64,000 nucleotides of DNA from Octopus sinensis. Lineage: Eukaryota. Numbering within the stretch: the stretch's first letter is position 1; each line of letters starts with the position of its first letter. The translations under genes were made by a program, and so were the position numbers. Below, piece by piece: positions 51,238-62,859 of the stretch. The stretch spans positions 135,222,001 through 135,286,000 of the forward strand of contig NC_042998.1 in NCBI RefSeq assembly GCF_006345805.1, in the 5' to 3' direction. The notes beneath the pieces were generated by a model that was not told where the DNA came from, made no database searches, and was given only the letters and a program-made list of their open reading frames with translations.

Positions 51238-51589
51238 ACTCATATTTCATCCAATATTTCATTCCGCTATATCTCGCTGCATTCATATATAATTTCTTAC
51301 ACGTGCGCAACTACTTCAACCAGCGAATGAGCCTCTAAGTGGTTACTCGGCTGGCTAGAAAAAGCAGCCAAATCCCCCGAATCCCATCAACAGTACTACC
51401 TGCCGGATCTGAGGTAAATGGGGCTAAATAAGCTTAAAGACGAGTATAAATAAATTCTGTTTTGTCAGCTTATTTCAAGAGAAGACGATTTGAAGGCACT
51501 TCGGTATTCAGTCCTCAGTTAAACTTTATTTATTATCGGCCTGCATTCTTAATTTTTTAAAGATGGTCTGATGTGGATTCATAAAAAAG

Positions 51590-51785
51590 AGAGTTCATAT
51601 GAGAAAGGAAACAAACGTATCAATCATATCTTAAGTGAATGCAGTAAGCTAGCTCAAGAAGAGTATAAGCAAAGGCATGACTGCGTCATTAAAAGACTGC
51701 ATTGGAACATTAGACAAGTATGTGGATTCAAAGTAGCAGAAAAATGGTATAAAGACAAAGCAGAGGCTGTGTTAGAGTACAATAA
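51590..51785 (+). mobile_element. R4/Dong-type (restriction-like endonuclease) LINE fragment
   Basis: INHILSECSKLAQEEYKQRHD...LHWNI..CG....WY....EAVLE, the post-CCHC motif. Confidence 0.75.
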
Positions 51786-52103
51786 AGACTCCCCAACCAC
51801 TTCGGTCATCAATGACCTAGAGATTACACCTAGAAAATTCCCCTCCGAGGCACAAGTCCCGGCAAGGCTGTTTTTATCGAAGACCAGCAGTCGCCAGTGC
51901 ATACCAACCTCCCCTCTCCACGTCACTGATGTTATCCAAGGGGAAGGCAAGGGCCGATACAGCTTGGCACCAGTGACGTCGCAACTCATTTCTACAACTG
52001 AGTGAACTGGAGCAACGTGAAATAAAGTGTCTTGCTCAAGGACACAACTCACTACCTTATGATCGTGATCCCGACGCCCTAAGCACCGAGCCATGCACCT
52101 TCA
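51784..52103 (-). mobile_element. tRNA-headed SINE (family D)
   Basis: Minus strand GTGAAGGTGCATGGCTCGGTG...GTGTCCTTGAGCAAGACACTTTATTTCACGTTGCTCCAG, shared with 8165-8210. Confidence 0.8.
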
Positions 52104-56545: not shown

Positions 56546-56710
56546 GCTTAGCGGCGTCTTTACGTTTTGAGTTCAAATTCTGCCGAGGTCGATTTTGCCT
56601 TTCATCCTTTCAGGGTCGATAAAATAAGTACCAGTTAGGTACTAGATTTGATGTAATCGACAAATCCTCTCCCCTCCAAATTTCAGACCATCTGCCTATA
56701 GTAGAAACAA
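56546..56710 (+). mobile_element. SINE family B, 5'-truncated
   Basis: Core homology. Confidence 0.8.
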
Positions 56711-57940: not shown

Positions 57941-58325
57941 GTGGAGGCGCAATGGCCCAGTGGTTAGGGAAGCGAACTCGCGGTCATAGGATCGCGGTTT
58001 CGATTCCCAGACCGGGCGTTGTGAGTGTTTATTGAGCGAAAACACCTAAAGCTCCACGAGGCTCCGGCAGGGGATGGTGGTGATTCCTGCTGTACTCTTT
58101 CACCACAACTTTCTCTCACTCTTACTTCCTGTTTCTGTTGTACCTGTATTTCAAAGGGCCGGCCTTGTCACTCTCTGTGTCACGCTGAATATCCCCGAGA
58201 ACTACGTTAAGGGTACACGTGTCTGTGGAGTGCTCAGCCACTTACACGTTAATTTCACGAGCAGGCTGTTCTGTTGATTCGGATCAACCGGAACCCTCGT
58301 CGTCGTAACCGACGGAGTGCTTCCA
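57941..58325 (+). mobile_element. SINE family C, full length
   Basis: tRNA-like head with A/B boxes; apparent TSD ACGTAATACTCTA at 57928-57940 and about 58331-58343. Confidence 0.9.
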
Positions 58326-60943: not shown

Positions 60944-61012
<69 letters not shown>

Positions 61013-61089
61013 TGCAGCGTGGAAAGTGTTTATAAGCCATTTAAGAAATACACAAAAGCCGTTAGATTCACTTCAACATTTAAATTTAA

Positions 61090-61140
61090 TTTGTCAAAAT
61101 ATTTTCGTCGCTTTGAGACCGCGACCTGTTCACTGACAAA
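61090..61140 (-). ncRNA. Type I hammerhead-like ribozyme with G3:C8 core variant
   Basis: TTTGTCA-GTGAACA-G-GTCGC(GGTCTCAAA)GCGAC-GAAA-ATAT-TT-TGACAAA. Confidence 0.7.
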
Positions 61141-61211
61141 ATTCCGTGCAGCACGGAATTTTGTCAGTGAACAGGTCGCTGTAATATATATATATATATA
61201 TAATATATATA

Positions 61212-61270
<59 letters not shown>

Positions 61271-61271
<1 letters not shown>

Positions 61272-61653
61272 ATGATAAATATCAAAGTGAGTTATATACA
61301 GTAGCGGTAACACATCGTGACGTATATTTGCCATCTCAATATGGCTACCCCTAAGGGTGGATGCTACTGTAGTTTTTAGCCCCAGGAGGACACACTCCTC
61401 CAGCTGGCCATAGACACACTTTCTGTGTCCTGTCAGTATTTGCAAAGGGAAGTCATCCTTCCCGTCTTCAACTTATGATACACACGGACTCGAGTTTCGA
61501 GGTATTGACCTCTCGTCAGCGTGTGACAATCATAGTTGTCGGCGAGAATTAGATTTCCTTCACCCACCCTTAGGGGTAGCCATATTGAGATGGCAAATAT
61601 ACGTCACGATGTGTTACCGCTACTGTATATAACTCACTTTGATATTTATCATT
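61271..61653. mobile_element. 383-bp element with perfect 90-bp inverted ends enclosing a hammerhead ribozyme
   Basis: 61271-61360 is the reverse complement of 61564-61653; left flank is (TA)n. Confidence 0.8.
61469..61538 (-). ncRNA. Canonical type I hammerhead ribozyme with extended stem I
   Basis: CAACTATGAT-TGT-CACACG-CTGACGA-GAGGT(CAAT)ACCTC-GAAA-CTCGAG-TC^CGTGTG-T-ATCATAAGTTG; all core positions intact, GUC cleavage triplet. Confidence 0.92.
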
Positions 61654-61957
61654 GTTTGATTTCACTTTTTCAATATCAGCGACAGTGGACGCTGGAAAAA
61701 GTATAAGTATTTGTACTGTAGTAAAATTAATGGGACGGGACGATGAGGGTGGTCCGTCCTGGTCGGTGCTTTTAATGGGGACTGTTATTTTCGGTCTGCT
61801 GTATAAGCCTGTTTAGGAGGTGAGTCGGCATACTGAAGTTCTGCACTGGGCAGTACAGACTCTGGCTACTCCACTGATTTTGAAATATATAACACACAGC
61901 GACAAAGTCTCAGTGCCTTTTTCTTGATAAATAAATCTGGATTTAATATTTTCACCT

Positions 61958-62173
61958 GAGCGGTGAGCTGGCAGAATCATTAACATACCAGACAAAATGC
62001 TTAGCGACATTTCGTCCGTCCTTGTGTTCTGAGTTCAAATTCCGCCGAGGTCGACTTTGCCTTTTATCCTTACCAGGTCGATAAAATAAATACCAGTTGA
62101 TTATTGGGGGTCGATGTAATCGGCTTACCCCTCCCTCGAAATTGCTGGCCCTGTGCCAAAATTTGAAACCAAT
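61958..62173 (+). mobile_element. SINE family B
   Basis: Head, core and tail homology. Confidence 0.88.
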
Positions 62174-62501: not shown

Positions 62502-62859
62502 CGTGGAGGCGCAATGGCCCAGTGGTTAGGGCAGCGGACTTGCGGTCGTAGGATTGCACTTTCGATTCCAGACAGAGCGTTGTGAGTGTTTATTGAGCGA
62601 AAACACCCAAAAGCTCCACGAAGCTCCACTAGGGGGTGGTGGCGAACCCTGCTGTACTCTTTCACCACAACTTTCTCCCTGTTTCTATTGTACCTTATTT
62701 CAAAGAGCCAGCCTTGTCACACTCTGTATCACACTGAATCTCACCGAGAACTACGTTAAGGGTATATGTGTCTGTGGAGTACTCAGTCACCTGCACGAGC
62801 AGGCTGTTCCGTTGATTGGATCAACTGGAACCCTCGTCGTCGTAACCGACGGAGTGCCA
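62502..62859 (+). mobile_element. SINE family C
   Basis: Homologous to 57941-58325; flanked by ATGAAGCATA repeats (TSD-like). Confidence 0.9.

Follow-up and report, generated by a model that had tools for sequence, protein, structure and literature searches.

A partly inverted hammerhead repeat in the Octopus sinensis genome carries a probable insertion footprint of Penelope-like elements

In a 64,000-nucleotide stretch of the Octopus sinensis genome (the window), a type I hammerhead motif lies between two perfect inverted repeats. Do these mirror-image ends belong to a mobile unit, or did they arise when this copy inserted? The window is non-coding and microsatellite-rich and belongs to a host genome of 2.7 Gb. 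The preliminary description of the locus had proposed the former, namely a 383-bp mobile unit that would fold into a long panhandle RNA. The 90-bp arms (61271-61360 and 61564-61653) are as perfect as it had stated, with zero mismatches, and the inverted repeat prolongs to 93 bp at 99% identity. The proposed unit and its boundaries did not hold: the right piece goes 61 nt further, to 61714, and is followed by eight more unit-derived bases, and the unit of the family is a 352-nt tandem monomer. The entire copy (61271-61714 plus 8 nt) derives from this tandem unit, which is numbered here from the ribozyme cut site of its natural monomer. It consists of a 293-nt arm and an inverted 151-nt piece, both from one 352-nt unit, and the 90-bp inverted repeat is the overlap of the two, unit positions 127-216 being present twice. 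All three pieces of the copy match the natural-monomer unit exactly. Its parts are as follows.

61182-61270, no strand: (AT)n microsatellite, likely the target site beside the fixed 3' end (from the sequence; (AT)n adjoins nearly all fixed ends in the 60-locus set)
61271-61563, minus strand: main arm of 293 nt, unit 276-352 then 1-216, with fixed site B (216) as its end; no difference from the natural monomer at locus L013
61271-61316, minus strand: 46-nt 'tail' from fixed end A (unit ~170-173) to fixed end B (216-219); 53 and 37 of 99 segment 3' ends lie at A and B
61469-61538, minus strand: type I hammerhead with extended stem I, core at 61481-61525 and palindromic stem III at 61488-61495 (RF00163; pair counts, three subfamilies)
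61564-61714, plus strand: inverted piece of 151 nt, unit 127-277, whose first 90 nt (61564-61653) are the right repeat arm (exact identity)
61715-61722, minus strand: 8 nt, unit 114-121 (exact match)

The outer end of the inverted piece (unit 277) adjoins the position at which the main arm stops (unit 276), and the terminal 8 nt are likely a last short template jump before the unique flank. Past 61722 the flank gave weak genome matches only (8/8 candidates, itself included). A 308-nt contig from a different run (X16) covers the right junction with zero differences, so the junction is no assembly error; no empty-site allele was recovered. The copy is recent, as had been suggested, since the natural monomer at another locus is identical. 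It is also non-coding: the unit has a GC content of 0.43, neither the unit nor the 64-kb window gave a protein match to Penelope-like elements (PLEs) or a reading frame with reverse transcriptase (RT) and GIY-YIG endonuclease, and the only long stop-free frame touching the copy is mostly microsatellite. Taken alone, the inverted repeat of the window is ordinary.

A genome search returned near-identical matches at 352-nt spacing, among them an array with a period of 352, 3.8 copies and 99% matches. The exact 36-nt ribozyme core occurs 614 times in the genome (reversed control: 0), so the core is common to the family, a point that the preliminary description had named as decisive. For the family anatomy, the first 100 of the 614 core matches were taken, which cover contig 1 and most of contig 2 and represent 60 distinct loci, all of which were used; choosing loci by an intact core biases toward longer arms. 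Tandem arrays reach 7 units with no ORF between units, and three subfamilies all wrap directly from unit to unit. Contigs of two runs, which we guess to be RNA, contain the unit together with the tandem junction, which is no proof of transcription. 5' truncation, partial tandems, an inverted truncated copy and an AT or microsatellite target are all present in the family.

The 60 loci carry 63 insertions, two of them local duplicates, and the 3' ends of their segments (n = 99) concentrate at two places: 53 lie at site A (unit 169-179), 37 at site B (215-223; one of these is a short internal piece) and 9 elsewhere. Both sites adjoin (AT)n and are about 46 nt apart; the true end at A is ~170, which BLAST reads as 173 because of a TA overlap. 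Thirty-one insertions are two-armed and head to head. In 27 of them an A end is paired with a B end, and the remaining four, the window copy included, have one fixed end. Every insertion with two fixed ends in this set is therefore A+B (27/27), with neither A+A nor B+B found (0 each); 26 of the 27 are distinct and one is a local duplicate, which gives a chance of 1.5e-8 at 50:50. Single-armed insertions end at A in 24 cases, at B in 6 and elsewhere in 2. A second set of 28 end-selected loci added 13 clear A+B insertions and 1 likely one; two of its loci (L115 and L122) have an A end paired with a near-A end. The A and B ends persist in subfamilies at ~89% and ~73% identity. Two fixed ends ~46 nt apart and paired A with B are the 'tail' footprint of a PLE, which intact PLEs of the same genome also display. 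The inversion point varies from copy to copy, and about half of the insertions have no inversion. Accordingly, there is no support for the inverted repeat being part of the mobile unit or for a functional panhandle RNA; the mirror-image ends are a by-product of how the window copy landed. This agrees with an alternative that the preliminary description had also offered, a locus-specific inverted pLTR-like arm, as other copies invert elsewhere or never.

Some further patterns in the same segments were rejected or noted in passing. Clustering of 5' ends at the ribozyme cut site amounts to 5/99 at positions 1-4, one of which (L064) is a mapping artefact; these are too few, and the range was chosen after the fact. 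A TA 'scar' inside an internal unit was seen at a single locus only. Near start site A a stem is conserved, but only 1/16 pairs is double-changed and the covariation term is ~0. Unit positions 121-156 form a hot spot of 5' ends (27/99) around a small palindrome, and the inner inversion point of the window copy (127) lies within it.

Every hammerhead part that had been named is present on the minus strand, including the position of the cut at the GUC site, predicted between 61487 and 61486. Stem I (CACACG/CGUGUG) is formed by 61525-61520 and 61486-61481, followed by CUGACGA, stem II (GAGGU-CAAU-ACCUC), GAAA and a palindromic stem III, ACUCGAGU. The claimed extension of stem I is found as well, with a distal stem, CAACUAUGAU/AUCAUAAGUUG, past a 3x1 internal loop. 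The motif thus has the sequence features of a type I hammerhead, with the CUGANGA core, GAAA, NUH and three stems of which stem I is the open one. The Rfam model for the type I hammerhead (RF00163) matches 61481-61525 over its full length with 32.2 bits (E 6.5e-6), just 1.8 under its gathering score of 34, so that a gathering-level Rfam scan of the whole window gave 0 matches. In the isolated motif, the catalytic fold lies ~6 kcal/mol above the predicted minimum. The circular monomer is predicted to fold at -117 kcal/mol, compared to -83 +/- 5 for shuffles (0/60 as low), with the extended stem I formed.

To follow the ribozyme across the family, 25 cores were aligned: the window core and 24 of 29 non-identical older-subfamily cores. 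Left out were five cores, on account of indels, chimeric joins or a single core defect, and the remaining near-identical young copies. Double-sided changes occur in 8/25 pairs, and 85.8% of cells pair versus 20-47% when slid; the count of double-sided pairs is not above shuffles (54/500), and few subfamily-level events lie behind them. In 11 copies the stem III palindrome has changed from CUCGAG to CCCGGG, a double change of an older subfamily that may be a single evolutionary event. In a monomer this pair would have just a 2-nt loop to close, and its preservation therefore suggests a dimer, as had been proposed. The covariation between subfamilies suggests that the palindrome is maintained, consistent with dimer cleavage. 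Short-stem-III hammerheads require dimers, according to the accessible part of Cervera and de la Pena 2020 (PMC7229834). In the young subfamily, including the window copy, stem II has the canonical G-C at its base, a pair missing in 21/25 aligned copies; U4C occurs in 9/12 copies of the older subfamily B. Older subfamilies spread with these less canonical cores. In view of these changes and of the 1/9 Xenopus dimers cleaved in vitro, the ribozyme, which had been described as probably active, is regarded here as a candidate.

Taken together, we consider it very probable that the window copy arose recently from a 352-nt tandem hammerhead repeat (a non-LTR retrozyme), of which it is a partly inverted copy, and that the RNA of this repeat was likely copied into (AT)n by a PLE RT with GIY-YIG endonuclease. 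In such a process, multi-unit copies would be transcribed, the hammerhead would cut the transcript, with the stem III palindrome likely serving to form a dimer, and the monomers would be circularised. A PLE complex would then nick both strands of an AT tract, and reverse transcription would be primed at internal RNA positions, A for one strand and B for the other. Each cDNA would extend a variable distance, often beyond the cut site, and the two would end up joined head to head. The window copy has a fixed end on its B-primed arm alone, and its second piece would be a local inversion from the stop of the first arm; a template longer than one unit would explain why the inverted piece repeats 90 nt of the first arm. 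Several findings count against the explanation: this copy is among the 4/31 two-piece insertions without a second fixed end, loci L115 and L122 pair an A with a near-A end, no partner PLE was found by sequence in the loci compared (below), the catalytic fold of the isolated motif lies above the predicted minimum, and the cores of older subfamilies are less canonical. With its single hammerhead, the window copy would not itself release a monomer circle.

The steps assigned to the PLE correspond to what is described for these enzymes and their insertions. PLE protein nicks AT-rich DNA in vitro on both strands, starts reverse transcription at two internal sites bounding the tail, and is predicted to be a dimer (Frangieh 2024, PMC11167929). 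In the available text of Craig 2021 (PMC8557442), PLE insertions show partial tandems with an inverted truncated neighbour, a tail of 30-40 bp that is often confined to one end, and a microsatellite bias. The sections of Arkhipova 2013 (PMC3846280) at hand report the same pattern in rotifers and propose self-priming.

How do other explanations fare against these data? An element of 383 bp that moves as such, whether MITE-like with its terminal inverted repeats or as panhandle RNA, would account for the perfect 90-bp arms, and a through-transcript would indeed form a long stem (z = -23.7). It is hardly credible, having been refuted in the sample taken: the right piece exceeds the repeat by 61 nt, the breakpoints of the window copy occur in 0/59 other loci, 32/63 insertions have a single fixed arm orientation, and the repeating unit is the direct 352-nt tandem. 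Where a MITE or TIR element would have constant terminal inverted repeats and a target duplication, the inversion points here are variable. An inversion that starts where the first arm stops is the geometry of twin priming, known from L1. Mobilisation by a LINE with ordinary twin-priming inversion, or spread as a DNA satellite with later inversions, would fit the inverted piece of the window copy, which begins at the first arm's stop (276|277). The window also holds LINE-like fragments, short frames at 837-1385 (minus strand) and 51553-52005 (plus strand) which we take to resemble LINE reverse transcriptase ends. We nevertheless regard this reading as quite improbable, as family members have a fixed site at the end of the second arm, with scattered 5' ends that are not contiguous with it, poly(A) tails are lacking, and two fixed internal ends are described as PLE-specific (PMC11167929). 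Very improbable, in our view, is that the copies are truncated terminal stumps of a yet-unfound autonomous PLE with no independent retrozyme. Their insertion architecture is identical to that of PLEs, and arms below one unit are indistinguishable from pLTR stumps. Against it stand the unit-to-unit wrapping, up to 7 times with no intervening ORF and alike in three subfamilies, and several examined loci at which the unit never runs in register into a PLE ORF.

The form of the template was approached through sequence variants in 79 loci, after dropping alignments below 93% identity and positions near gaps or ends. Five variable sites divide the family roughly in half. Units within one locus agree in 266/267 tests and the two arms in 129/129; the three main haplotypes, diverged to a similar degree (0.3-0.6%), probably existed during overlapping periods. 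Twelve private variants are common to all covering units of one locus. Among 92 private variants covered by both arms, 10 (at 7 loci) occur on both and 82 on a single arm, which shows that subsequent gene conversion has not been complete; some of the single-arm variants may be assembly errors. Both arms of an insertion thus likely stem from one RNA or one source locus, and the matching variants suggest that each event used a single RNA as template; alternatively, one source may have dominated the cell at any given time. In 6/27 two-armed insertions each arm reaches unit positions that the other lacks, so that simple fold-back copying is excluded for these six. Fixed-end segments extend past the cut site in 80/90 cases, and twice or more in 29 (estimated from length), which rules out a cleaved linear monomer as the usual template. 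The usual template must be circular or an uncleaved multimer, and the data are compatible with both.

Under a variant of the preferred explanation, which overlaps with it and differs solely in the form of the template, the PLE copies a long multimeric transcript that has not been cleaved; a circle is then unnecessary, and the ribozyme either can be dispensed with or depends on protein. We consider this unlikely, though of some weight. Anole PLE ribozyme mutants insert unaffected and the ribozyme needs protein to cut (PMC11167929), only 1/9 Xenopus retrozyme dimers was cleaved in vitro in the accessible part of Li, Clavereau and Pollet 2026 (bioRxiv 10.64898/2026.07.22.740005), U4C is frequent in subfamily B, and a homogeneous array transcript would give concordant arms too. 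On the other side, core and stems are conserved across subfamilies with double changes, the circular monomer folds far below shuffles with stem I formed, and the 12 private variants are in all covering units of one locus. Going one step further than the preferred explanation, each insertion may reflect one PLE complex, plausibly a dimer, on a single 352-nt ribozyme circle, priming both nicked strands simultaneously, one at A and the other at B, with both RTs rolling round it ahead of cDNA joining. We put this forward tentatively, as quite possible. If true, the genome itself would directly document circles of animal retrozymes as substrates of PLEs, and would show that within each event the two strands use different PLE start sites. 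From the strict A/B pairing and the variant identity across arms follow single-event predictions, testable in the published in vitro PLE system with a 352-nt template.

The host has intact PLEs with RT and GIY-YIG. A young family (L198 2742-5069, minus strand, and L211-L230) has RT and GIY-YIG in a 775-aa open frame with a second frame upstream; its copies are 99-100% identical, (AT)n-targeted and have two 3' ends ~44 nt apart, with A+B pairing in 4/4 resolvable inverted copies. As a separate observation, a second intact PLE family (L191-L197) with 780-781-aa frames, 47% identical to the first, has two (AT)n-adjoining ends; its 3' region contains, by eye, a minimal hammerhead-like motif with palindromic stem III. 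No pLTR similar to the unit was found in ~75 PLE loci, a small fraction of 5029 GIY-YIG candidates. None was alignable to the unit in 50 GIY-YIG loci or 20 further PLE loci, except for two separate nearby retrozyme insertions. When the unit was compared with 12 PLE 3' regions, 10 scored below the best shuffle and 2 marginally above. At twenty further loci, 15 of them chosen by site-B read-through, no ORF stood in register with the unit, and two had separate PLE fragments nearby. L198, where an 88%-identical unit lies upstream of the 775-aa PLE frame, was rejected as partner: the unit is present in 1/21 examined copies of this PLE family, hence a nested insertion. At two loci (L237 5790-7569 and L238 4770-9187), retrozyme arms are joined to internal PLE fragments with no AT spacer and a short local inversion at the joint. 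These fusions may be template switches or nested insertions with deletion, and as they involve two different PLE families they cannot name the partner.

The family has what defines non-LTR retrozymes by sequence, namely tandem units in the range of 150-450 bp that each contain a single type I hammerhead, two or more intact units in succession, no coding capacity and a GC content <50%; the window copy itself has one ribozyme. The accessible portions of the metazoan retrozyme papers (PMC7229834; bioRxiv 10.64898/2026.07.22.740005) describe the same range of unit sizes, GC content <50%, single type I hammerhead, lack of a coding frame and dimers to multimers. Axolotl retrozymes share the short stem III and, in the same available text, act better as dimers. 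Inverted arms, two internal fixed ends, a tail and (AT)n targeting, present here, do not appear in those portions of the 2020 and 2026 papers. Shared with PLE insertions, as far as the available parts of PMC3846280, PMC8557442 and PMC11167929 go, are partial tandems, 5' truncation, the adjacent inverted truncated copy, an extension confined to one end, targets that are AT-rich or microsatellite, and a hammerhead located upstream of the ends. Unlike PLEs, the retrozyme has no RT or endonuclease, and compared with the descriptions in those parts its tail is 43-46 nt instead of 30-40 and its hammerhead core is canonical instead of a minimal variant. The accessible text of Craig 2021 (PMC8557442) describes PLEs with an N-terminal endonuclease as having no canonical hammerheads, in contrast to the core found here. 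It also describes MRC1-type non-autonomous Chlamys PLEs, which are likewise non-coding, multicopy head to tail and have PLE-type ends; unlike here, their 3' end resembles that of the autonomous partners. By its sequence the octopus element is thus a non-LTR retrozyme, and it appears to behave like a PLE passenger.

In the sections of the two retrozyme papers at hand, the mobilising enzyme of animal retrozymes was left open in 2020 and argued in 2026 from co-occurrence and phylogeny. The link to PLEs there consists of co-occurrence and pLTR similarity; here it is the insertion footprint, with no pLTR similarity found. As the family itself bears a PLE-specific mechanistic footprint, it offers unusually clear evidence for mobilisation by PLEs, and it is young, abundant and shares its genome with intact PLEs of the same target and similar tail length. 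Titles and abstracts, searched with thin coverage of the subscription literature, gave no prior report of the family, or of a PLE tail footprint in a retrozyme; the family may already be catalogued in repeat databases such as Repbase or Dfam.

The AT tract beside the window copy holds a second element (61009-61181), composed of a 145-nt arm and a short inverted arm (hairpin 61120-61180). It has relatives at 7 other loci, 90-94% identical and some with different inversion points, and is likely another PLE-type stump. Elsewhere in the genome, a repeat between AT tracts (L210 3860-3935, plus strand) contains a different hammerhead-like motif with the same ACUCGAGU palindrome and is possibly another retrozyme family. 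Two dispersed repeat families with 87-98% identity also occur in the window, one at 57941-58320 and 62503-62857, the other at 56555-56636 and 62017-62098; by eye, both have a tRNA-derived, SINE-like look.
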